DNA of 35,512 bases from Candidatus Thorarchaeota archaeon (GTDB taxonomy: Archaea > Asgardarchaeota > Thorarchaeia > Thorarchaeales > Thorarchaeaceae). Each line of letters begins with the position of its first letter. Position 1 is the stretch's first letter. Both the position numbers and the translations under genes were made by a program. The DNA is taken from the NCBI GenBank assembly GCA_016839445.1, contig JAEOUG010000140.1, positions 1 to 35,512 of the forward strand, read 5' to 3'. This document shows positions 16,845-30,890 of this stretch, in pieces. The notes beneath the pieces were generated by a model that was not told where the DNA came from, made no database searches, and worked only from the letters and a program-made list of their open reading frames with translations.

Positions 16845-19800
16845 CTATAGCTGGTCCATAACGCTCTGTAGATCCTTCACCTGTTCCATACTCTCAGGGT
16901 CCACTAGAAGCGCTGACTTCATGGTCTTCTCTTCACCAGGCATTAGCATGACATTGACATCAAGCGCAGCCAAGAATATGAGGGGACCTATCGTGGCGCC
17001 AACCATGCCCGTGTCTTTGTCTGGAGATACCATCGCTAATCCTTTTGTGCGTCCAGAAGACTCTCGTGGCTTCACGTAGATGTAGTTCGTCGAAGGTGTC
17101 ATTCCGTTAAACGCAGGAGCCGGACTGACAGTTCTCTCCACTCCAGACCACTCTGACTGCAGCACCAGTCCAGAGGGATCACCATCGATTGCTGGGTCAA
17201 CATACAGCATTGGGAAGAATCTCAAAGGGGCGGAAGTCACATTCTTCATTCTCCACTTGATCAAGACAAGTGGTGAACCTGGTGAGGTTAGGTACTTCAG
17301 AGAGAACTCCACTCCCCGAGTAGTCTTCTGGAGTGCACCTTGCCAAGAAACCTCGACGCCTTTCCAGAAACCATCCTCGACAGCTCGGGCACTCATCTCC
17401 TCTTGGTTGGTCTTCGCCTTGGTGAGGGTCTCGCTCATCTCCTCATCAAACACGATAGGCTGAACACCTCCGTAGTAGTTGTCTAAGAAGGCCCCCGGAC
17501 GAGGAACCGCGTTAGGAAACGAGCTGATCATGAACTCAACACCCTTCTTGTTCTTCAGTGAAGTCAGGCAACCACCGTAATCAGAGGACACAGTGAACTC
17601 AATCTCACCATTCTCCACGTGATGAGTGTCCTTGCCCTCAGACTGCTCCTGGCGCACGCGGACTGCTTCAGACCTTCTCCCAAGGCACACAACGTCTAGT
17701 GAGGAGGTGAAGTCAACACCAGATGAAGCATGCACGGAACCTCGATAGACGCCAAATGAGTCAGCCACCTCTTCGGACGGATTCAGTTCAAACTCCATGG
17801 TCGCGCTCCCCTCAACATGGATTCCCGCTCGGACTGGTGTCGAGAGATACCATTCTTTCGGAGCATCAATCTCAATCTCCGCCTCAATGGGAACAGGTAT
17901 CATGTTCTTCAGGGATACTCTTACCGTTCCCTTCTCTGAGTGTGGGAGTAGTAGGGCAGCCGCGTGAATGTCAAGAACAGAGTGAACAGGGGGAGATTCC
18001 GACAGCTCGTGTTCGTAGACACCTTTGGTCCTCGCCATCCACTTCCTTCTCACTTCTCTCCAGCCAGAAGTGCCAAAGACAGTTGTGACGCCTATGACCA
18101 TCCTCATTTCGCCGGGTGGGAGGCTCGTCATCTTTGATGAGAGCATACCGATAAGCCCTCCGCCCACCTGAACCTCATCTACCTCATCCCTATTCCACCA
18201 ATTGCCGACTGTGCCAGTTTCTGTGGATGTGGTAATCCAATCCTCCTTGAAGGTGTCCGGCGAGTTGGGTAGTGACGGATAGGACAATCTAGATACGCCG
18301 ATCGGCTCGCCGACCACTCCACTCTGAAGGGACACGTATGCTTGACCTGGATTGAATGTGATTCCCATCTGCCTACCCACAATACGAACCTGGAGTGTCT
18401 GGTTCTCCTTTCCCGTGTTCTTGACCCACACCTCCCTTCGCACGATTCCCGTACCGTGTTCGAAGATGGCCCTATCCTCAATCCAGAGCGGCCTTTCTGG
18501 ATGCTGGGCATTCAGGCTGACGACTGTTTCCGAGGAGGTAGATGATATCTGCACATCCCGTTCGGCAAACCGAAACGGGCTCAGACCAAACGGAGGACCT
18601 ATCTCAGTCCTGTAAATCTGATCTATGATGTCCGGTGAGTTTGGGCTCCTTAGCTGCAGAATACCGCCCTCTCGACGGCAATAGGCAACGTAATCGCTGC
18701 CTGCAACAACAATCCTCTTGGCCCTGTCATCTTCTCCAACGGCAACACCATTCTCGCCAAGGCAGAACACTGGTATTCTCGTCCGCCGAGTGACAATGGG
18801 TCCAGAGTCTCTACCATCCAGCTCAAGCCAGAGCCAAATATCATGGGACCCCTCACCTAGCCTGGAATCAGCTTCGACCTCGATTATGGTGCCAGCAGGT
18901 CCCTCTTGTGGGATCTTCACAACATCGTCTGCGATCTGTACGTTCAATCCGTTCGGAGTCTCGAAATGGATGCGCCCCTCTGCAGCATGTGCTAAGTTGC
19001 TGAACAGAGTCAAGGGGACTGAGCACTTGCCGCCTGCAGACAGCCTGCAGTGTCCTTGGCGAGTATAGATGTCAGCCGCTTCTGCAAGCTTGAGTCCGGT
19101 CACTAGCTCAAACCTGGCCCCTCCTGTTTCTATAGATGCTTTGATGGACGGTGCTTTGATTCCCTCTCTGTGGAGCTCCGACTCAGGGCCGAAGACAAAG
19201 GATGCGCTCCATTGTGATGTTTTGCCCGAAGGGACTGTGAGCTTCGTCTTGCTACCTTCAGTGAAGGTGATACCTCTTGGTCCAGAGAGCTCGATGCTGA
19301 GATGCATTTCATCGGTGCTCCCATTTAGTATCTCGAGTGTGACATCTTCCTGAACTCCGCATACTACGTTCTGAGAACTCGGCAGAATCCTTACGGAGGA
19401 CAGGGAGCCCTCTCTCTCTTCCTGAACGCCGCAGATCCCTCTTGCATATCTGTCAACGACGACATTGAGGCGGTCATCTCCTTCCCGGAAGTGGTAGTTG
19501 TATACCGCCATCCCTCGGTCCTCCATGTTGTCAGGTGCTTGAGTGATGTCACGAACCTGAAGTCGATACCAGTCATCTTTGCCTGTCATGTGCTCCTCGA
19601 AGAACCTCCTGCAAAGAGGATGCTTGAGTATGCCAGGTATGTAGCCTTCCATGGTTAGACCCTCACCTCCAGGGTTCCACATCAGGCCTATCTTCTTGTA
19701 GAGAGGAACGGCTCGCATGTTCCCCGCCCACGTGTTTAGGTCCACTCGAGCGAAACCGGCTTCAGTCACTCGCCTCACAGACTCAAGAAGCAGTTTCTTC

Positions 19801-20105
19801 CCGACCTTCTGATTCAGTGAGTCCGGAGAGACTCCAAGGGTACCGATATAGGCAGCTTCCTTGTCCCTCCAGTGCTCATGCAAGGTGCAGGAGCCTACAG
19901 GTTTCCCGGAGGCTTCATCAATTGCGACAAGTATCGCTAATGCATTCATCCGCCCGAATTGCTTCTTCACGCGATCTGCGTCAAATGGGACACCTCTGGT
20001 ATAGCCACCAGGCCATAGAGGGTCCCAGGTATTGTACATGGCCGCCAACGGAGCAGCCAGGGCTTCTTTGTACTCTGCTATCGTGATCTTCATCTCGGCT
20101 GTCAA
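16845..20105 (-). CDS. Large multidomain GNAT-family N-acetyltransferase
   Basis: N-terminal GNAT (YIGTLGVSPD...KVGKKLL, LNTWAGNMRAVPLYKKIG) followed by about 900 aa of beta-rich sequence; TTG start. Confidence 0.85.
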   Translation of the reverse strand: MTAEMKITIAEYKEALAAPLAAMYNTWDPLWPGGYTRGVPFDADRVKKQFGRMNALAILVAIDEASGKPVGSCTLHEHWRDKEAAYIGTLGVSPDSLNQKVGKKLLLESVRRVTEAGFARVDLNTWAGNMRAVPLYKKIGLMWNPGGEGLTMEGYIPGILKHPLCRRFFEEHMTGKDDWYRLQVRDITQAPDNMEDRGMAVYNYHFREGDDRLNVVVDRYARGICGVQEEREGSLSSVRILPSSQNVVCGVQEDVTLEILNGSTDEMHLSIELSGPRGITFTEGSKTKLTVPSGKTSQWSASFVFGPESELHREGIKAPSIKASIETGGARFELVTGLKLAEAADIYTRQGHCRLSAGGKCSVPLTLFSNLAHAAEGRIHFETPNGLNVQIADDVVKIPQEGPAGTIIEVEADSRLGEGSHDIWLWLELDGRDSGPIVTRRTRIPVFCLGENGVAVGEDDRAKRIVVAGSDYVAYCRREGGILQLRSPNSPDIIDQIYRTEIGPPFGLSPFRFAERDVQISSTSSETVVSLNAQHPERPLWIEDRAIFEHGTGIVRREVWVKNTGKENQTLQVRIVGRQMGITFNPGQAYVSLQSGVVGEPIGVSRLSYPSLPNSPDTFKEDWITTSTETGTVGNWWNRDEVDEVQVGGGLIGMLSSKMTSLPPGEMRMVIGVTTVFGTSGWREVRRKWMARTKGVYEHELSESPPVHSVLDIHAAALLLPHSEKGTVRVSLKNMIPVPIEAEIEIDAPKEWYLSTPVRAGIHVEGSATMEFELNPSEEVADSFGVYRGSVHASSGVDFTSSLDVVCLGRRSEAVRVRQEQSEGKDTHHVENGEIEFTVSSDYGGCLTSLKNKKGVEFMISSFPNAVPRPGAFLDNYYGGVQPIVFDEEMSETLTKAKTNQEEMSARAVEDGFWKGVEVSWQGALQKTTRGVEFSLKYLTSPGSPLVLIKWRMKNVTSAPLRFFPMLYVDPAIDGDPSGLVLQSEWSGVERTVSPAPAFNGMTPSTNYIYVKPRESSGRTKGLAMVSPDKDTGMVGATIGPLIFLAALDVNVMLMPGEEKTMKSALLVDPESMEQVKDLQSVMDQL

Positions 20106-20316: not shown

Positions 20317-22533
20317 ATGAGCGCGTACAAGCGAGTCACGGGCCGCAGACTTGCAGCAGGCATCTCTCTCGCACTCCTAGCTGCAGTAGGCTGGTTCCTG
20401 TTCCTCAAGGACTCGTGGGCTGATTCGAGCATCTATGTTTCCTCCTATAGCCTCTCCTCTTATCTAGCGATGATGTGCGCCGCATACATTCTGGTTGAGT
20501 ATAGGATCCGAGAAGAAACCGAACAGACCGTCTTCCATGCTGCGCTCTTCTTTGTTTCCATAGTCTCGATGATTAAGGCCAGCAGAATAATACTCCAGCA
20601 GGGCCCGCTACACGCGCTGTCACTCGAAATGCTCAGCATGCTGGCAGATCTGTGCATCTTTGGTGTGATACTCCTAATCAGCGTTGTAAGAAGAAAGCAA
20701 GGAGGCCCGAATCAGAGAGGATTTGAAGTCGTCGCCCTTGTGCTCGCAGGCCTCTTTGTGCAGCTGGTAGCCTTTGTCGCCTTCAACTATGTCCCACCGA
20801 GTGCGCATCCAATCCTTGGTGCAGTGATGGGTATATTCGCCGCAACGACTGTTACGACCTCAGGTTTTCTTTGGCTTCGAATCGGCGCTACTCAGAGAAT
20901 GTTTGACACAACTACGCTAATTGTGGGCTTCCTCACCTACGGTGTGTCTTGGATTCCGCTCGTCTACTCTCTATACCAGCCCTCGATATTGTGGACACTT
21001 GCCTTCTCCTTGAGAGGCATCGGATTGGTCTTCCTGGTTGTGAGCACAGCTCTGCCCTTCTTCCAGAGATCAGGTTCCCCACGATCGGCAGCTTACCTTG
21101 GAATACTGGGGCTGCAGGCGGTAGCCATTCTTCCGCTCTTCATCACAGAAACCGTTTCAGGATTCTTCCCAGAGGGCGCATCACTCGGAAGCGGCGTGCA
21201 TGTGATTGTCCACTTAGGGGCCGCGATATTGGCAATCTTCATTGCTGTCCTCACAAGTGTGTACAACTCTCAGAGGTTCGAGATAAGGCGTTATCCACTG
21301 ATTGTGGCGTTTCTTGTGTGGGCATCCCTCGATATCTATCAGATTGTCATCACGCTTGTGCCGAGCCTGGGACTCAGCACAGCCTCACTAGCACCGTATG
21401 CATCCGCGATTCTCCTTACTGGGCTGCTGCTCCCGCTCTCCATGCGGTGGACTTCTTCGGAGCCTCCTAAGTGGATCATCGACAACAGAAGGATTCTCAT
21501 TGTCATGACCATCTTCTGCTTCTTCTTTGGCGTGTGGATTGGTGAGGCGTATTCCATCTGGTTTCTCACTCTACCCTCATTTCCTTATGCCAGAATCTTC
21601 ATCCTAGCGACTCTGGTGTTCATCGTGTTCGCTTTTGTATACAGCCTCTCAGCACAGCTCAGAGTGAGCAAAGGTCGACCTAGCGTAGACCTGCTTTCGA
21701 TTGGCTTCCTCTTACCTTGGATTGTGCCAACACTAATACGTGCTAGCTATGGAGAGATGTCCATAGGTTGGGGGCTCGCAGACCTTCTTCTGCTCATGAC
21801 TTTGCTCGTTGGCCCTGTTGTGCTTGGAGCAATATACCTGGAGGAGATGCAACGTGCAGAGGAGCAAAAGAAGCGCGCACAGCTATATGCGGACCTTCTT
21901 GTTCACGACATAACCAACTACCACCAAGCTCTGGAGATTGGTTTCGGTCTGATCAGTCTCGATGATACAGATCCTAGCATTCAGAAACGGGCAGTGGAAG
22001 CCTCCTACGCAGAGCTAGAGAGGGCAGACCGGCTAATCAAGGACGTCAGGAGACTAAGCATGGCCGAGGAATTCACGCCCGCGGCATTGCATGAGATTGA
22101 CCTGACTGTGATACTAGATGCAGCCTTCAGCATTGCTTGCCGTAGACTGGACACTCACGGAGTAGCCCTTGAGAAGCTCAACCCGCATGGCGAATTCCAC
22201 GCACTCGGCAGCAATCTTCTCATAGATGCGGTTGCCAGTGTTTTGGAGGACATCATCATTCACAAAGCGAACCAAGAGCCCATCACGGCGGACATCAGAG
22301 ATTCGGACAGTCAGGGGAAGGGCTTCTGGGAACTGACTCTGAGTGCTTGTCTGAGAGACTCAAGTCCCTTCAAGGCAGGAAGACCAGAAGACATGACCGC
22401 CAACCAAGGGTTAGGACCTTCGGTAGCCAGTAGCATCGTTGAAGCACTAGGCGGCACACTCCGCATCAGTCAACCGAACGAGAGTGACGACATTCATAGA
22501 ACGTCAGTGACATTCACGCTCAGAAAGGCTTGA
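20317..22533 (+). CDS. Multi-TM sensor histidine-kinase-like protein with degenerate HATPase domain
   Basis: About 14-16 hydrophobic helices, coiled coil, H-box LLVHDITNYHQ, G2-like GLGPSVASSIVEALGG; N-box and G1 box not recognisable. Confidence 0.8.
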   Translation: MSAYKRVTGRRLAAGISLALLAAVGWFLFLKDSWADSSIYVSSYSLSSYLAMMCAAYILVEYRIREETEQTVFHAALFFVSIVSMIKASRIILQQGPLHALSLEMLSMLADLCIFGVILLISVVRRKQGGPNQRGFEVVALVLAGLFVQLVAFVAFNYVPPSAHPILGAVMGIFAATTVTTSGFLWLRIGATQRMFDTTTLIVGFLTYGVSWIPLVYSLYQPSILWTLAFSLRGIGLVFLVVSTALPFFQRSGSPRSAAYLGILGLQAVAILPLFITETVSGFFPEGASLGSGVHVIVHLGAAILAIFIAVLTSVYNSQRFEIRRYPLIVAFLVWASLDIYQIVITLVPSLGLSTASLAPYASAILLTGLLLPLSMRWTSSEPPKWIIDNRRILIVMTIFCFFFGVWIGEAYSIWFLTLPSFPYARIFILATLVFIVFAFVYSLSAQLRVSKGRPSVDLLSIGFLLPWIVPTLIRASYGEMSIGWGLADLLLLMTLLVGPVVLGAIYLEEMQRAEEQKKRAQLYADLLVHDITNYHQALEIGFGLISLDDTDPSIQKRAVEASYAELERADRLIKDVRRLSMAEEFTPAALHEIDLTVILDAAFSIACRRLDTHGVALEKLNPHGEFHALGSNLLIDAVASVLEDIIIHKANQEPITADIRDSDSQGKGFWELTLSACLRDSSPFKAGRPEDMTANQGLGPSVASSIVEALGGTLRISQPNESDDIHRTSVTFTLRKA

Positions 22534-22578: not shown

Positions 22579-24966
22579 ATGGATACCGAGATCCACCATT
22601 CAGCCTGTTCTTTGAATTGCCCTGATCTTTGTGCATACGTTGTTGAAGTCGTGGACGGAAAAATCGCAAGGCTGAGAGGAGACAGTAGACACCCATACAC
22701 ACTCGGAAGGTGCTGCCCTAAGGGCTATGCGCATGTGGAGAGGATGTACCATGAGGACCGACTCCTATTTCCACTGAGGAAGCAGCCCGATGGCTCATTC
22801 GCCCAGACAAGCTGGGAGAGAGCTCTGGACGAGGTCTCTTCTCGGATATCTGATGCAATTGCTGAGCATGGTCCAGCTAGTGTGGGAATCTACTCAGGTT
22901 CGGGCAACGACGGGATGGCTCCAAGATATGCGTCAAGGTTCGCGAATGTCATCGGTAGCCCCATGATTCCAGGAATCGCAGAGATCTGCTTCGAAGGTGC
23001 ATACGAGGGTGCTAGATTCAATGTAGGACCCTTTCCACCGCATGAACTCAGCGACTGGCTGAACTCCAAGTGTATAGTCGTATGGGGAACGAACAAGGTA
23101 GAATCAGGTATCCATACCAAACGCATTATCCAAGAAGCCAGAGACCTGGGCGCTCTTCTTGTTGTCATCGATCCTCGGAAGACACCCCACGCCAGAGAAG
23201 CAGACATATACACAACGATAAGGCCGGGAACGGATGGTGCGCTGGCACTGGGAATCGCCAACGAGATAATCCAGCGAGACCTTGTCGACCATGACTTCGT
23301 GCGGAAACACGTCTTCGGATTCGAGCAGTACGTTCAGCATGTTTCAGCCTATGGCAAGGAGAGAGTATCAGGAATCACTTGGGTTCCGAAGCATAAGATT
23401 ACTGACATAGCTATTGCATTTTCAACTCACGGACCCTCACTCATCACAACGGCTCCTGCAGGTATGAATCACTACACAAATGGCACCTGGGCGGCCAGGG
23501 CGGTCCATAGCCTGCTGGCCATATGCGGCTATATTGGGAAGCCAGGCGGCGGCTTCCAGTACCTTTCCTCAGACAACAGCCCGTTCGCAGACATCACATT
23601 GAAACACTTGCTGCCGGAAAGCTCCCAGCCAGTGGTTCCATCCGCCACGTTTCTCCCTGAGTACATAATCAATCACCAGGAGTGCCCACTTGATGTTCTC
23701 ATCATCCAGGCGGCAAACCCGATCACACAATGGCCGAACACAACGAAGACCAGAGAAGCTCTCACCCGCATTCCGTTCAAGGTCTGCATTGACCTAGAGA
23801 TGACAGATACAGCTCGGGCGTGCGACCTCGTACTCCCTGCAACTTTCATCTTCGAGCATCATAATCTTGTACACAGCGAGATACACAGGATTGTGCAGTA
23901 TGCACCAAAGATTGTGGAACCAAGAGGAGAAGCAATGACTGAGCTTGATATATGGAAGGGGATAGCAGAACGGCTTGGGCTAGCCGAGTACTTCAGAGCC
24001 AACGAGACCGATATGATAAGAGAGGCGCTGAAAAGCGACCACTGTAGCCACATCTCACTTGAGGACCTGACAGAAAGACCACAGGGAATCAGAACGAGCA
24101 GTCCAACAGTCCCCTTCTCCGACCACGCATTCAATACTCCGTCTGGCAAGATCGAGCTGTACTCTCACACACTGGAGAAGATGGGTTACGACCCGTTGCC
24201 GCATCACGAAGAACCTGCAGAGAGCCCTGTTTCAACCCCTGATGTCTATCGGGAGTATCCTCTGATCATGATTACAGGCAGGCTCCGAAACAGGCTCCAC
24301 TCTCAGTATGGCACCGTTTCTGTCGGAGGCGCGGTGAAGAGCTTCTCGCATTGCACATCCTGCAGGAAGTGTGTAGAGGAGTGCCCTGACGAAGCAATCT
24401 CAATGGCCCAACCCACTCCTCGGGAGATCGAGTCAGGCTGGGATGACCAAGGTGGCAGCAGGGCTCGTATGAGGATGACTCTTGGTAGTCTGGTCAACCA
24501 CCTTGCGGTTAGCGTCGACGACAAGGTAATCTCTGTGCCCAAGGGCCTCAACTCCTTCTTGGTCCCTCGATGGGACACAACGAAATGCATTGGTTGTCGC
24601 GAGTGTGAGCTCGATGTCTGCCCCTACTCGGTTGTGACCAAAACTCTGCAAATGGGGACCAGGAAGAGCGGTTCTTCAGAGCGGTCATTCCTTAGAATGC
24701 ATCCACAGTCTGCTCAGAGTCTGTCACTCCAAGATGGAGACATGGTACGCGTTGAGTCCCAGTGGGGCATCGTGGATCCTATGCGGCTCGAGGTAACTCA
24801 TGACATCGACCCAAGAGTTGTCTGGGCATCAGATGGATGGTGGGATCAGAACGGCAATGTAAATCTCCTTACAGCCGACAAACACACCGCTTTCGGGAGC
24901 ACACCAGGCTTCAACTCCGTGCTGGTAAGAGTAACGAAGTCGAACCGCGAGTCGGACCTAGACTAG
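22579..24966 (+). CDS. Molybdopterin (Mo/W-bisPGD, DMSO reductase superfamily) oxidoreductase with inserted 2x[4Fe-4S] ferredoxin
   Basis: CSLNCPDLC...CPKG, DRLLFPL, WGTN, VIDPRKT, IRPGTDGALA, TDTARACDLVLPA, TPSGKIELYS, ITGR...LHSQ, MHP..A..L.LQDGD.V.VES; extra CxxCxxCxxxCP and CxxCxxCxxxxCP. Confidence 0.93.
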   Translation: MDTEIHHSACSLNCPDLCAYVVEVVDGKIARLRGDSRHPYTLGRCCPKGYAHVERMYHEDRLLFPLRKQPDGSFAQTSWERALDEVSSRISDAIAEHGPASVGIYSGSGNDGMAPRYASRFANVIGSPMIPGIAEICFEGAYEGARFNVGPFPPHELSDWLNSKCIVVWGTNKVESGIHTKRIIQEARDLGALLVVIDPRKTPHAREADIYTTIRPGTDGALALGIANEIIQRDLVDHDFVRKHVFGFEQYVQHVSAYGKERVSGITWVPKHKITDIAIAFSTHGPSLITTAPAGMNHYTNGTWAARAVHSLLAICGYIGKPGGGFQYLSSDNSPFADITLKHLLPESSQPVVPSATFLPEYIINHQECPLDVLIIQAANPITQWPNTTKTREALTRIPFKVCIDLEMTDTARACDLVLPATFIFEHHNLVHSEIHRIVQYAPKIVEPRGEAMTELDIWKGIAERLGLAEYFRANETDMIREALKSDHCSHISLEDLTERPQGIRTSSPTVPFSDHAFNTPSGKIELYSHTLEKMGYDPLPHHEEPAESPVSTPDVYREYPLIMITGRLRNRLHSQYGTVSVGGAVKSFSHCTSCRKCVEECPDEAISMAQPTPREIESGWDDQGGSRARMRMTLGSLVNHLAVSVDDKVISVPKGLNSFLVPRWDTTKCIGCRECELDVCPYSVVTKTLQMGTRKSGSSERSFLRMHPQSAQSLSLQDGDMVRVESQWGIVDPMRLEVTHDIDPRVVWASDGWWDQNGNVNLLTADKHTAFGSTPGFNSVLVRVTKSNRESDLD

Positions 24967-25496
24967 TCATAGTACTCAACAGCGCTGCCGAACGTTGACT
25001 CTTCATCTTCCCCCACACCGTCTCCATAACGTGATTGAGGGTCATCCGTTGTGAGTGTGGCGATGCCATCAAACGAGGAGAGAGGATAGGTAGTGATGTC
25101 GTTTCCTTGTTCATCCTCGACTATCCAGGAGTCATCCGGACTCAGGCTTGTGAAGCTCCAATCCGATAGACACGCTTCTCTGAATGTATCAAGACCGGTT
25201 CCGTGGACAAGGACTTCGCGCCCACCTGGGCCGTCTCTAATTGCTCTAGAGAATGTATCAGTATCGTACACTCTATACTCACCTAGTTCAGTAGGCCCTG
25301 CAGACTTGGGCTTGAGTGCCTCTGTATATGCAGAGAAGAACATGTAGACCATCAAGCACAAGACCAATACAAGCACAAAGAGCAACGCGAAGGCAGATCC
25401 ATGTGGGAAGGCAGCAGGAGCAGTGAGATGGAATCCAAGGGCGGCACCAAGAACAACGACCACTGCAACAAGAGCAAGAAGCTGACCACGACGCAT
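24963..25496 (-). CDS. Hypothetical protein, 2 N-terminal TM plus acidic soluble domain
   Basis: Two hydrophobic helices then an Asp/Glu-rich domain; overlaps the oxidoreductase stop by 4 bp (shared CTAG); ORF open to 25505. Confidence 0.7.
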   Translation of the reverse strand: MRRGQLLALVAVVVVLGAALGFHLTAPAAFPHGSAFALLFVLVLVLCLMVYMFFSAYTEALKPKSAGPTELGEYRVYDTDTFSRAIRDGPGGREVLVHGTGLDTFREACLSDWSFTSLSPDDSWIVEDEQGNDITTYPLSSFDGIATLTTDDPQSRYGDGVGEDEESTFGSAVEYYD

Positions 25497-28681: not shown

Positions 28682-28750
28682 AGCCTCTCCTTGGCGCTAT
28701 CCGCAAGCTATATGTCAGGTTCTGAAGTCGAACCTGATGAGGTTAAGCCC

Positions 28751-29815
28751 ATGGACCCAAGAGTGGAGGAACACGCGCGAGTTCTTGTTGAATGGAGCGC
28801 TGAGGTCAAGAAAGGAGACCAGGTCGTTATTTCAGCCTCTCCGCGAGCGCACGACCTAGTCAAGGCAATCACAAAGGCAGTGGCAGAAGCCGGCGGCACA
28901 AGTATCACTCTCATGCAGAGTGAGGAAGTCAGCCGCGCATTCTATGATGGCGCTTCAGATGAAACCCTAGAGGTGTTTCCTAGGCACATGAAGGCGCTTG
29001 TAGAGCAGACTGATGTTTTCTTCGGTATTAACGCCCCTGTGAATACCAAGGCTCTTGCGAGAGTGGATCCAAAGAGGATTGTCGCTCGCTCGAAGGCGAC
29101 GAAAGAGATCAGTGACATCATAACCGGGAAGCGCTGGGTGGCGACTGTCCACCCCTGTGAGACCCTAGCCCAGCAAGGCGACATGAGCTTGGATGAATAC
29201 AGAGACTTCGCGTATGGCGCGATGCTCATCGACTGGAAAGAAGCAAGCAAGAACATGAATCTGATGAAGGAGAAGCTCGAGCGCCATAACGACGTTCGCT
29301 TCGTGGGTCCTGAAACAGACCTTTATGCCAAGACCGAGGGCAGGATATGGATTGCTGCTGATGGCAAGTACAACATGCCTGATGGAGAGGTCTTCACGGC
29401 CCCGGTTGAAGACACGGTCGAAGGCTCAATCTACTTCGACGTTCCGTTCATGCAGCAAGGCAAAGTCGTTCAGGGAGTCCGCCTGAAATTCGAGAAGGGA
29501 GAGGTTGTGGACTTCTCGGCAGAGAAGTCAGAAGCAACTCTCAAGGCGATTCTAGAGATCGATGAAGGTGCGAAGAAGCTTGGCGAGATGGCCATTGGCA
29601 CAAACCGTGGCATCAAAGACTACACACTGAACATGCTCTTCGACGAGAAGATAGGCGACACGATTCACTGTGCGCTTGGAATGGCCTATCCCGAATGCAA
29701 CGGCACGAATGAGAGCGCCATTCACGTAGATATGATCAAGACCATGGATGACGGCGAGGTTCTTGCAGGCGATGAAATCATCTACTCGAAGGGCAAGTAC
29801 TTCTATGAGAAGTGA
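28751..29815 (+). CDS. M29-family (thermophilic metallo-) aminopeptidase, copy 1
   Basis: NMPDGEVFTAP, LGEMAIGTN, LFDEKIGDTIHCALG.AY, NESAIHVDMI; start moved to ATG 28751 by alignment with copy 2. Confidence 0.93.
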   Translation: MDPRVEEHARVLVEWSAEVKKGDQVVISASPRAHDLVKAITKAVAEAGGTSITLMQSEEVSRAFYDGASDETLEVFPRHMKALVEQTDVFFGINAPVNTKALARVDPKRIVARSKATKEISDIITGKRWVATVHPCETLAQQGDMSLDEYRDFAYGAMLIDWKEASKNMNLMKEKLERHNDVRFVGPETDLYAKTEGRIWIAADGKYNMPDGEVFTAPVEDTVEGSIYFDVPFMQQGKVVQGVRLKFEKGEVVDFSAEKSEATLKAILEIDEGAKKLGEMAIGTNRGIKDYTLNMLFDEKIGDTIHCALGMAYPECNGTNESAIHVDMIKTMDDGEVLAGDEIIYSKGKYFYEK

Positions 29816-29828
29816 GGTGTGATACGAC

Positions 29829-30890
29829 ATGGATCCTAGAGTAATAGAACACGCCAAGGTAATAGTGGACTGGAGCACAGAAGTCAAGAATGGTGACATG
29901 GTCATCATCAATGCCACTCCAGAATCACACGAGCTTGTGGTGGCACTCTACAAAGAAGTCGCAAGAGCTGGCGGACGTGTAGTCACTCTCATGTACAGCG
30001 AAGAGGCGGCGAGAGCCTTCTACGATGGAGCCTCTGAGAAGACACTCTCGCTTGTGCCAGAACACCTGAAAGCCATTACAGAAGCCTGTGATGTCTACAT
30101 CTCCCTTAGATCACCCGTCAACAATATGGCTCTGGCAAACGTTGACTCGGCCAAGCTTACTCTGGACTCGAGGACACAGCAGGACATACAGGCCACAAGG
30201 CTGAGCAAGAGATGGTGTCTTACGGTGCATCCCTGCCAGACACTGGCGCAGCAGGCGGGAATGAGCCTTGAAGAGTATCGTGAGTTCGTCTATGGTGCGA
30301 CCCTAATCGACTGGAAAGAAGAGAGCAAACAGATGTACCTGATAAAGGAGCATCTGGAGAGGCATAAGGACGTTCGGTTCACTGGCCCTGAAACAGACTT
30401 GTATGCCTCTACGGAAGGCCGAATCTGGATAGCTTCCGACGGCAAACATAACATGCCCTCAGGAGAGGTCTTCACAGCCCCGGTGGAAGACTCAGTTGAG
30501 GGGTCAATCTACTTCGATATTCCATTCCTGCAGCAGGGCAAGGTGATACAGGGAGTCCGATTGACCTTTGAGAAGGGAGAAGTAGTGGACTTCTCGGCCG
30601 AGAAGGAAGAAGCCAAGCTCAAACAGATTATTGATACAGACGAGGGGTCGCGGAGACTAGGTGAGATGGCCATCGGCACCAACAGAGGTATCCAGCAGTA
30701 CACACTGAACATGCTCTTTGATGAGAAGATAGGCGATACGATACACTGTGCTCTTGGGCGTGCCTACAAGGACTGCAACGGCGTCAATGACTCTGCGGTT
30801 CATGTAGACATGATCAAATCCATGAAGCAGGGAGAAGTCATCGCAGGGGATGAGAAGATCTACTCGAAGGGCAAGTTCTTCTACGAGTGA
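29829..30890 (+). CDS. M29-family aminopeptidase, copy 2
   Basis: NMPSGEVFTAP, LGEMAIGTN, LFDEKIGDTIHCALGRAY, NDSAVHVDMI; GAGGTG SD overlapping the stop of copy 1. Confidence 0.93.
   Translation: MDPRVIEHAKVIVDWSTEVKNGDMVIINATPESHELVVALYKEVARAGGRVVTLMYSEEAARAFYDGASEKTLSLVPEHLKAITEACDVYISLRSPVNNMALANVDSAKLTLDSRTQQDIQATRLSKRWCLTVHPCQTLAQQAGMSLEEYREFVYGATLIDWKEESKQMYLIKEHLERHKDVRFTGPETDLYASTEGRIWIASDGKHNMPSGEVFTAPVEDSVEGSIYFDIPFLQQGKVIQGVRLTFEKGEVVDFSAEKEEAKLKQIIDTDEGSRRLGEMAIGTNRGIQQYTLNMLFDEKIGDTIHCALGRAYKDCNGVNDSAVHVDMIKSMKQGEVIAGDEKIYSKGKFFYE

Follow-up and report, generated by a model that had tools for sequence, protein, structure and literature searches.

Here, we describe a gene on a 35,512-nucleotide contig of a Candidatus Thorarchaeota archaeon (assembly GCA_016839445.1, contig JAEOUG010000140.1; hereafter the window, meaning the whole stretch of DNA analyzed) which encodes, at 22579..24966 of the + strand, a cytoplasmic protein of the MopB (dimethyl sulfoxide reductase) superfamily of molybdenum or tungsten bis(pyranopterin guanine dinucleotide) (Mo/W-bisPGD) enzymes with an internal ferredoxin domain. 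The architecture, in which the insert splits the C-terminal cofactor-binding domain (domain IV), is real, conserved and lineage-specific, and it is undescribed as far as our searches reach. As read from its sequence and its predicted structure, the insert is a complete ferredoxin module of the 2x[4Fe-4S] type inside domain IV. The protein as a whole is probably a soluble, cytoplasmic, Cys-ligated Mo- or W-bisPGD oxidoreductase, ferredoxin-dependent and with an internalized electron carrier, in an uncharacterized branch of MopB.

The open reading frame (ORF) at 22579-24966 on the + strand, to which all features of the gene given below also belong, codes for 795 amino acids without internal stops and represents a complete MopB/dimethyl sulfoxide reductase family protein. 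The ATG at 22579 is the earliest start downstream of the preceding in-frame stop, and all Cys codons are standard (TGC/TGT). The public gene call (P0001, 784 amino acids) starts 11 residues downstream of this ATG and loses Cys10; since Cys10 is conserved at a level of at least 90% in the clade, the reading of 795 amino acids was preferred. In this reading the first Cys of the N-terminal [4Fe-4S] domain (FS0) is residue 10, which leaves no space for a Tat or Sec signal, and the enzyme is predicted from sequence to be cytoplasmic, having no signal peptide, as the initial annotation of this DNA, made from its letters alone, had stated for the Tat signal.

A profile scan with the Pfam hidden Markov models matched FS0, Molybdopterin, a split Molydop_binding and Fer4 families. 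The FS0 domain covers residues 5-58 (22591..22752; Molybdop_Fe4S4, E 1.1e-10), with C10 (22606), C14 (22618), C18 (22630) and C46 (22714), all checked at the codon level, in the spacing C-x3-C-x3-C-x27-C. It is followed by the Molybdopterin region (domains II/III) at residues 61-465 (22759..23973), where PF00384 is matched over positions 1-353 of its 353 (E 3.5e-43; 148.4 bits against a cut-off of 24) and where Cys137 in the motif EICFEG (22987..22989) is the presumed Mo/W ligand according to the alignment to acetylene hydratase (2e7z) and formate dehydrogenase (7bkb_D). Domain IV opens with a first strand region, PLIMITGRLRNRLHSQY (residues 561-577; 24259..24309; model strand E562-567), which directly precedes the insert, and its remainder is found at residues 704-789 (24688..24945), modelled with a predicted local distance difference test (pLDDT) score of 90-97. 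The Molydop_binding match (protein 697-781, profile 26-109 of 110; E 5.4e-19; 68.7 bits against a cut-off of 26.8) does not begin before profile position 26, owing to the insert, and the absent part of the profile corresponds to residues 561-577, which align to residues 599-603 of 2e7z and to residues 575-588 of 7bkb_D. At the insert site, 136 residues of the Thorarchaeota protein stand against 24 in 2e7z, and 123 against 12 in 7bkb_D; given this short stretch in the known enzymes, domain IV is split by an insertion of about 113 residues. The claim of the initial annotation that a Cys-rich insert splits domain IV was thus borne out by both the scan and the alignment, and its positions for the flanks and motifs coincide with the residue numbers used here (I565-Y577, 24271-24309; C592-P603, 24352-24387; C670-P682, 24586-24624; F704, 24688; C137, 22987).

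The inserted ferredoxin-like domain with its linkers occupies residues 578-703 (24310..24687). Its first cluster motif, C592-x2-C595-x2-C598-x3-C602-P603 (24352..24387), lies within Fer4-family matches at residues 585-615 and has the classical CxxCxxCxxxCP spacing, and the second, C670-x2-C673-x2-C676-x4-C681-P682 (24586..24624), is matched by Fer4_2 and Fer4_6 at residues 662-685 and is one residue longer before the last Cys. By the usual pairing in ferredoxins, C592, C595, C598 and C681 would ligate one cluster and C670, C673, C676 and C602 the other. Between the two halves lies an excursion of about 50 residues (611-661; 24409..24561), which is mainly helical (helices 614-618 and 630-641). 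Over 585-615 and 662-685 several Fer4 families exceed their gathering cut-offs, namely Fer4_16 (32.0 against 30), Fer4_7 (29.5 against 27), Fer4_2 (25.9 against 24.5), Fer4 (25.2 against 21.1) and Fer4_6. As sequence patterns, the Cys motifs of the insert are far beyond chance. The G+C content of the insert, 0.557 as compared to 0.528 for the gene, is not unusual. The 2x[4Fe-4S]-type module that had been proposed for domain IV was accordingly recovered as complete and conserved by the Pfam scan, the alignment and the model.

Conservation of the insert was assessed among its homologues. Both Cys motifs, including the x4 spacing of motif 2, are kept in 120 of 122 clade proteins, the two exceptions being fragments of 657 and 593 amino acids, and all eight insert Cys residues are invariant among 113 full-length homologues. 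These 113 sequences, together with the 37 nearest relatives without insert, make up a 150-sequence alignment (A4), in which Cys137 is invariant throughout, the bacterial relatives included. In the clade, C46, K48 and C137 as well as H574, S575 and Q576 immediately before the insertion point are invariant, with at least 90% conservation at C10, C14, C18, P15 and D16. Between Y577 and F704 the 113 clade members have a loop of 123-139 residues (median 126), as compared to 8-13 residues (median 13) for its equivalent in the 37 relatives. Pairwise column identity amounts to 0.63-0.70 in the ferredoxin halves, 0.73 in the core and 0.42 in the excursion, which is the most variable part of the insert although P612, R632, L635 and P654 are invariant there. 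These values indicate that the ferredoxin halves are under constraint and conserved almost like the core. The possibility that the insert stems from chimeric assembly, which the initial annotation had raised together with a lack of conservation of the Cys motifs, or from a sequencing artefact, is practically negligible: more than 100 independent assemblies carry the insert, the insert enzyme occurs (E <= 1e-100) in 23 of the 36 further genomes searched in the family of the window, and contigs from two studies bridge the junctions. One of these Logan contigs (run X1, possibly the source sample; 977 bases) covers 24107-25083 with zero differences, and the other (run X4, from another study; 586 bases) covers 24031-24616 without differences at the junction. 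On these grounds the chimera was ruled out.

The predicted structure is in line with this reading. With the 150 sequences of A4, AlphaFold2 (AF2) yielded a model with a mean pLDDT of 92.6, a predicted template modelling score (pTM) of 0.90 and pLDDT values of 84-88 in the insert. The insert is modelled with strands at 580-582, 607-610, 662-665 and 690-692 and helices at 597-601 (motif 1) and 675-680 (motif 2), so that the order of its secondary structure elements, and the order only, is that of a (beta-alpha-beta)2 fold with a helical excursion. The terminal strands 580-582 and 690-692 flank the domain with their ends adjacent, which fits insertion into a loop. The core superimposes on FdhH, Nap, FdnG and acetylene hydratase with Z 37-40 and root-mean-square deviations (rmsd) of 2.3-2.8 Å over 626-661 residues; the comparison with FdhH (1fdi) gave Z 40.2 and 2.3 Å over 640 residues, and other MopB chains gave Z above 33. 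By analogy with the partner genes of relatives and from the model, an intramolecular wire from the insert clusters to FS0 would be the best-supported reading, and we hold it to be probable. Alternatively, the insert may not feed the FS0 of its own chain, acting instead in trans on the second FS0 of a homodimer or serving as a docking or relay module for another complex. The variable excursion of 50 residues could be a partner-specific surface, and the inserted ferredoxin domain of heterodisulfide reductase HdrA is described as working in trans, between protomers. However, the AF2 monomer, with the confidence values given above, suggests fixed intramolecular packing of the insert, and this alternative is considered unlikely.

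The distribution of the insert points to a single event. All of the best 120 database matches are 62-81% identical to the protein and contain Fer4 families; they comprise full-length proteins of 768-828 amino acids and nine shorter ones (593-739 amino acids) which seem to be fragments, and where named they derive mostly from Thorarchaeota, with single entries assigned to Lokiarchaeota, Odinarchaeota or Promethearchaeota. At E <= 1e-100, the 24 genomes searched to represent 17 further families of the same phylum gave no match (0/24). When 1.84 billion cluster representatives were searched exhaustively with HMMER and the best 150 were examined, the insert was found only in P0101 (full-length) and in two fragments; a gap in score between 1208 and 435 bits separates the insert-bearing clade from the next proteins, which have about 650-700 amino acids and 29-39% identity, and none of the other 147 of these best 150 representatives has ferredoxin motifs at the insert site. 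Two of these 147, which lack the insert, carry ferredoxin motifs as terminal fusions, P0182 (877 amino acids) at the C-terminus (residues 706 and 783) and P0241 (983 amino acids) at the N-terminus (residues 14 and 92); taken with the internal insert, this means that Fe-S modules were gained in at least three ways within one subfamily. In a quickly built maximum-likelihood tree of 89 rows (78 loci obtained by a genome scan with a pattern bias, 9 proteins of the clade, the query, and as outgroup the genome's own paralogue), the insert-bearing proteins form one monophyletic clade (SH-aLRT 100; stem 0.79). Its sister group (100) consists of 53 bacterial sequences that lack the insert and come from Acidobacteriota, Pseudomonadota, Bacillus, Ignavibacteriota, Calditrichota and KSB1. 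Monophyly and an insert-free sister group imply one gain on the stem of the clade. The insert has a single origin and is restricted to one lineage within the searched sets.

The source of the inserted domain was sought with the insert alone. Among proteins of 67-216 amino acids, only a 211-residue fragment of the same family and no free-standing relative was retrieved. Matches in the Protein Data Bank were generic and at the level of the motifs (to PsaC, polyferredoxins and the like), none of the 60 matches listed was a MopB chain, and both halves align weakly to PsaC (E 9e-4). BLASTP against a ferredoxin of the Bradyrhizobium type was not significant (E 0.057). A search of proteins of 1393-3975 amino acids returned no longer fused form at E <= 1e-20, which is weak evidence, and an ESM Atlas search with residues 556-795 gave scores of at most 0.79, to be taken as leads only. 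In a further genome (G014) the genome search reported one TAG inside the orthologue match (G014:C7:26162-28543); as the corresponding locus (L107) has an uninterrupted ORF of 796 amino acids, the TAG is probably its regular stop codon, past which the alignment has run.

The main argument for an internalized carrier comes from the sister enzymes, which are often encoded next to ferredoxin or Fe-S protein genes. In nine loci of the Bradyrhizobium, Rhodopseudomonas and Pseudorhodoferax type (L049, L038, L041, L058, L047, L039, L055, L082 and L028) a gene for a ferredoxin of 101 amino acids begins 3-120 bases past the stop of the MopB gene. In Bradyrhizobium sp. (L049:5908-9715) the MopB and ferredoxin genes are followed by a Pyr_redox_2 flavoprotein gene, with an AraC-type regulator upstream; by its gene content this operon looks like a three-component soluble redox system, and in the sister enzymes the chain would probably run from NAD(P)H via the flavoprotein and the ferredoxin to FS0. 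Other sister loci have larger Fe-S proteins: 453-458 amino acids downstream in L005, L014 and L017, each of them containing Fer4_11 and those of L005 and L014 also a DmsC-like part, Fer4_11 subunits of 163-211 amino acids in L020, L062 and L056, and a dicluster ferredoxin of 120 amino acids in L046. From these adjacent genes it follows that the insert of the Thorarchaeota enzyme can be read as the internalized carrier, i.e., the enzyme would have taken up the ferredoxin or Fe-S partner which its bacterial sisters encode as a separate neighboring gene.

For the mechanism, we infer cluster occupancy, cofactor occupancy, electron path, direction of flow and substrate alike. We propose that an external low-potential donor encoded elsewhere, such as a ferredoxin, a flavoprotein or a hydrogenase-type module, would reduce the outer insert cluster, that electrons would hop between the insert clusters to FS0 and pass from FS0 via the proximal pterin to Mo/W, and that in the last step a small cytoplasmic substrate would be reduced at the Mo/W site; electron flow in the opposite direction is also conceivable. 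Taken further, the chances are about even that this Asgard lineage turned a multi-component, ferredoxin-dependent molybdo- or tungsto-enzyme into one self-wired polypeptide, with the carrier spliced into a surface loop of the cofactor-capping domain and with three clusters and Mo/W in one soluble protein, an insertion site and a solution not described for any MopB enzyme.

As to the family, membership in the MopB/dimethyl sulfoxide reductase superfamily is evident from both Pfam domains, the four-domain fold and the position of the protein ligand to the metal. Cys137 aligns with the metal-ligand Cys of two known enzymes, located in 'MYMC' of acetylene hydratase (2e7z) and in 'RICH' of formate dehydrogenase (7bkb_D), in agreement with the Cys-ligated Mo/W site that had been postulated. 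No curated NCBIfam model reaches its cut-off, the best being Fdh-alpha (TIGR01591) with 288.6 bits against 666.25, which sustains the earlier assignment to an uncharacterized clade. A formate dehydrogenase was rejected on the basis of this score and because Phe138 occupies the His site and Ser330 the site of the Arg of 'PLRGQNN' in the comparison with 7bkb_D; the His directly after the Sec/Cys ligand and this Arg, the catalytic one, are presumably the key residues of formate dehydrogenases. The genome contains only one more MopB gene (G000:C164:66395-68098; L002:439-2466, - strand; 675 amino acids), which passes the Fdh-alpha equivalog cut-off (743.3 against 666.25 bits), so that formate dehydrogenase has its own gene elsewhere in the genome.

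The relationship to acetylene hydratase required closer consideration, as 2e7z is the best solved sequence match (E 2.4e-60; 207.6 bits) and acetylene hydratase is the top Foldseek match of the model. These matches would suit a non-redox hydratase similar to acetylene hydratase, in which the extra clusters are structural or serve the reductive activation of W(IV)/Mo(IV). However, the Asp after the second FS0 Cys of acetylene hydratase, which we take to be its catalytic Asp13, is replaced by Pro15, two extra four-Cys motifs are present, and acetylene hydratase has no structural pre-eminence, since its Z of 37.6 is not above the Z of 38-40 for FdhH and Nap. Moreover, the sisters are encoded with a ferredoxin and a flavoprotein reductase, pointing to redox chemistry, and eight Cys residues gained and kept for a non-redox role would be less economical. 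Identity with acetylene hydratase was therefore rejected, and a hydratase of this kind is regarded as improbable, despite a survey which counts seven 'AH family' homologues in Asgardarchaeota metagenome-assembled genomes by similarity and attributes them to horizontal gene transfer from bacteria (Wells et al., 2023; PMC10100899). The text of that survey does not use the word 'insertion'; it may have counted the present clade as acetylene-hydratase-like, a label for which the residue tests above give no support. Literature searches, with thin coverage of subscription journals, found no description of a ferredoxin inserted in domain IV of a MopB enzyme.

Several observations weigh against a self-wired redox enzyme with a loaded cofactor. 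The x4 spacing of motif 2 is non-classical. A first AF2 run with 78 sequences, 22 of them with the insert, modelled the core well and the insert at pLDDT 38-65; this failure with a shallow alignment means that the placement of the insert depends on a shallow clade of 62-81% identity. No operon partner, longer fused form or characterized close relative hints at the substrate. Furthermore, MoaC, MoeA_N, the C-terminal domain of MoaA and MoaE were not found in the genome of the window (G000, 89.8% complete), so cofactor loading is not safely assumed.

The missing pterin genes leave room for a further explanation, namely a MopB-like scaffold without cofactor, comparable to NuoG or QrcB, in which only three Fe-S clusters are functional and which would act as an electron-transfer protein; a weak NCBIfam match to QrcB (123.9 bits against a cut-off of 440) could be read in the same way. 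Of 23 genomes searched in the genus (G000-G022), 9 yielded MoaC and 10 yielded MoeA_N. Against such a scaffold stands the fact that all 23 carry 6-14 matches to the AOR family, which requires pterin; the genome of the window itself has 12 (PF02730) besides its two MopB genes. AOR-family enzymes and formate dehydrogenase need the same pterin pathway. In genomes where they were found, moaC and moeA are encoded together on a single contig (for instance C241, C301 or C154), and the distance from moeA to a contig end is about 500 bp in G014 and G021, an arrangement which makes assembly or binning loss plausible. The presence of the enzyme does not track that of MoaC: both occur in 5 genomes, the enzyme only in 8, MoaC only in 4 and neither in 6. 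The absence of the pterin genes is due either to recurrent assembly or binning loss of a small region or to pterin-cofactor auxotrophy. The invariance of Cys137 in all sequences of A4 and the end-to-end match to the Molybdopterin profile argue for an intact cofactor site. Additionally, many positions of the Molybdopterin region, W169, G170, T171, N172, D198, P199, R215, P216, G217, D219, H574, S575, Q576 and N762 among them, are clade-invariant or at least 90% conserved in A4, and these presumably belong to cofactor-contact motifs. Taken together, a scaffold devoid of cofactor appears very improbable, and a Mo- or W-containing oxidoreductase is preferred.

No redox partner was found in the genomic surroundings. 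Across 14 distinct loci of Thorarchaeota (15 rows, one contig being represented twice), the enzyme itself was the only ORF with ferredoxin motifs found within about 3 kb, and no neighboring Fe-S or anchor gene was found in these loci, as had been noted for the window. The description of the enzyme as stand-alone, likewise from the initial annotation, holds for the gene order and does not hold for electron supply, since an external electron donor is still required. Among the neighbors, a DinB-family gene in convergent orientation recurs in 9 of 14 loci, a GNAT protein of about 1100 amino acids in 8 of 14 and a CitMHS transporter in 7 of 14, besides M29 peptidases and a PadR/BtrH_N pair; these neighbors are syntenic, mainly on other strands and unrelated to redox chemistry, and give no clue to the substrate. 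In the window, a polytopic membrane protein of 738 amino acids without a Pfam match is encoded at 20317-22533 (+), 46 bp upstream of the MopB gene. Its homologues in other loci have a C-terminal HATPase_c domain, which makes a divergent sensor histidine kinase probable; only here and in one other locus (L106) was it seen next to the MopB gene in the same orientation. The GNAT protein of the window, at 16845-20105 (-), has 1086 amino acids with an N-terminal GNAT domain, the other ~950 giving only a sub-threshold match to the Ig-like FixG_C. Tandem M29 (thermophilic aminopeptidase) genes for proteins of 374 and 353 amino acids lie at 28691-30890 (+), and M29 genes, paired or single, are again found close to the MopB gene at other loci of Thorarchaeota.

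MopB enzymes serve as textbook cases of modularity in redox proteins, and their extra Fe-S clusters are known as separate subunits or as terminal fusions. If the reading given here is true, an internal ferredoxin splitting domain IV would be a third mode of wiring for these enzymes and a minimal natural model of how an electron wire is built by domain insertion. Because the sisters keep the carrier as a separate gene, the two groups would offer a natural before-and-after pair for the study of domain insertion. Moreover, the finding marks a conserved redox enzyme in Thorarchaeota, whose metabolism is inferred from genomes alone.

Compared to known systems, the acetylene hydratase of Pelobacter acetylenicus (2e7z) is similar in being a monomeric cytoplasmic enzyme with a Cys-ligated metal, an FS0 cluster and no partner subunit, whereas it lacks the ferredoxin insert, has the FS0 spacing C-x2-C-x3-C instead of C-x3-C-x3-C and shares about 28% aligned identity. 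The bacterial MopB sisters (about 650-700 amino acids; 29-36% identity; 270-435 bits) have the C-x3-C-x3-C N-terminus, no signal peptide and Cys137 in common with the Thorarchaeota enzyme, but possess a loop of 8-13 residues without insert and in many cases an adjacent ferredoxin or Fe-S subunit gene. In the Bacillus sister loci a gene for a YchF-type GTPase follows the MopB gene; as yyaE and ychF are presumably neighbors in B. subtilis, these Bacillus proteins may resemble YyaE. YoaE and YyaE are listed as proteins of unknown specificity (Ravcheev and Thiele, 2014; PMC4257093).

The membrane-bound enzymes DmsABC, PsrABC and FdnGHI have the same catalytic fold and an FS0 cluster fed by a chain of [4Fe-4S] clusters, yet they use a separate four-cluster subunit, a membrane anchor and usually Tat export, whereas here two clusters would reside in the catalytic chain itself; a complex iron-sulfur molybdoenzyme was rejected, as no four-cluster or anchor gene was found nearby in the 14 loci and no Tat signal is present. 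Extra Fe-S clusters in one polypeptide with a MopB core are found in FdsA, YjgC/ForC and NuoG-type proteins; there they are fused N- or C-terminally, in contrast to the internal position that splits domain IV in the Thorarchaeota enzyme. HdrA, too, is a redox enzyme with a 2x[4Fe-4S] ferredoxin domain inserted in a loop of its catalytic domain, although the host fold is unrelated, being that of a thioredoxin-reductase-like flavoprotein.

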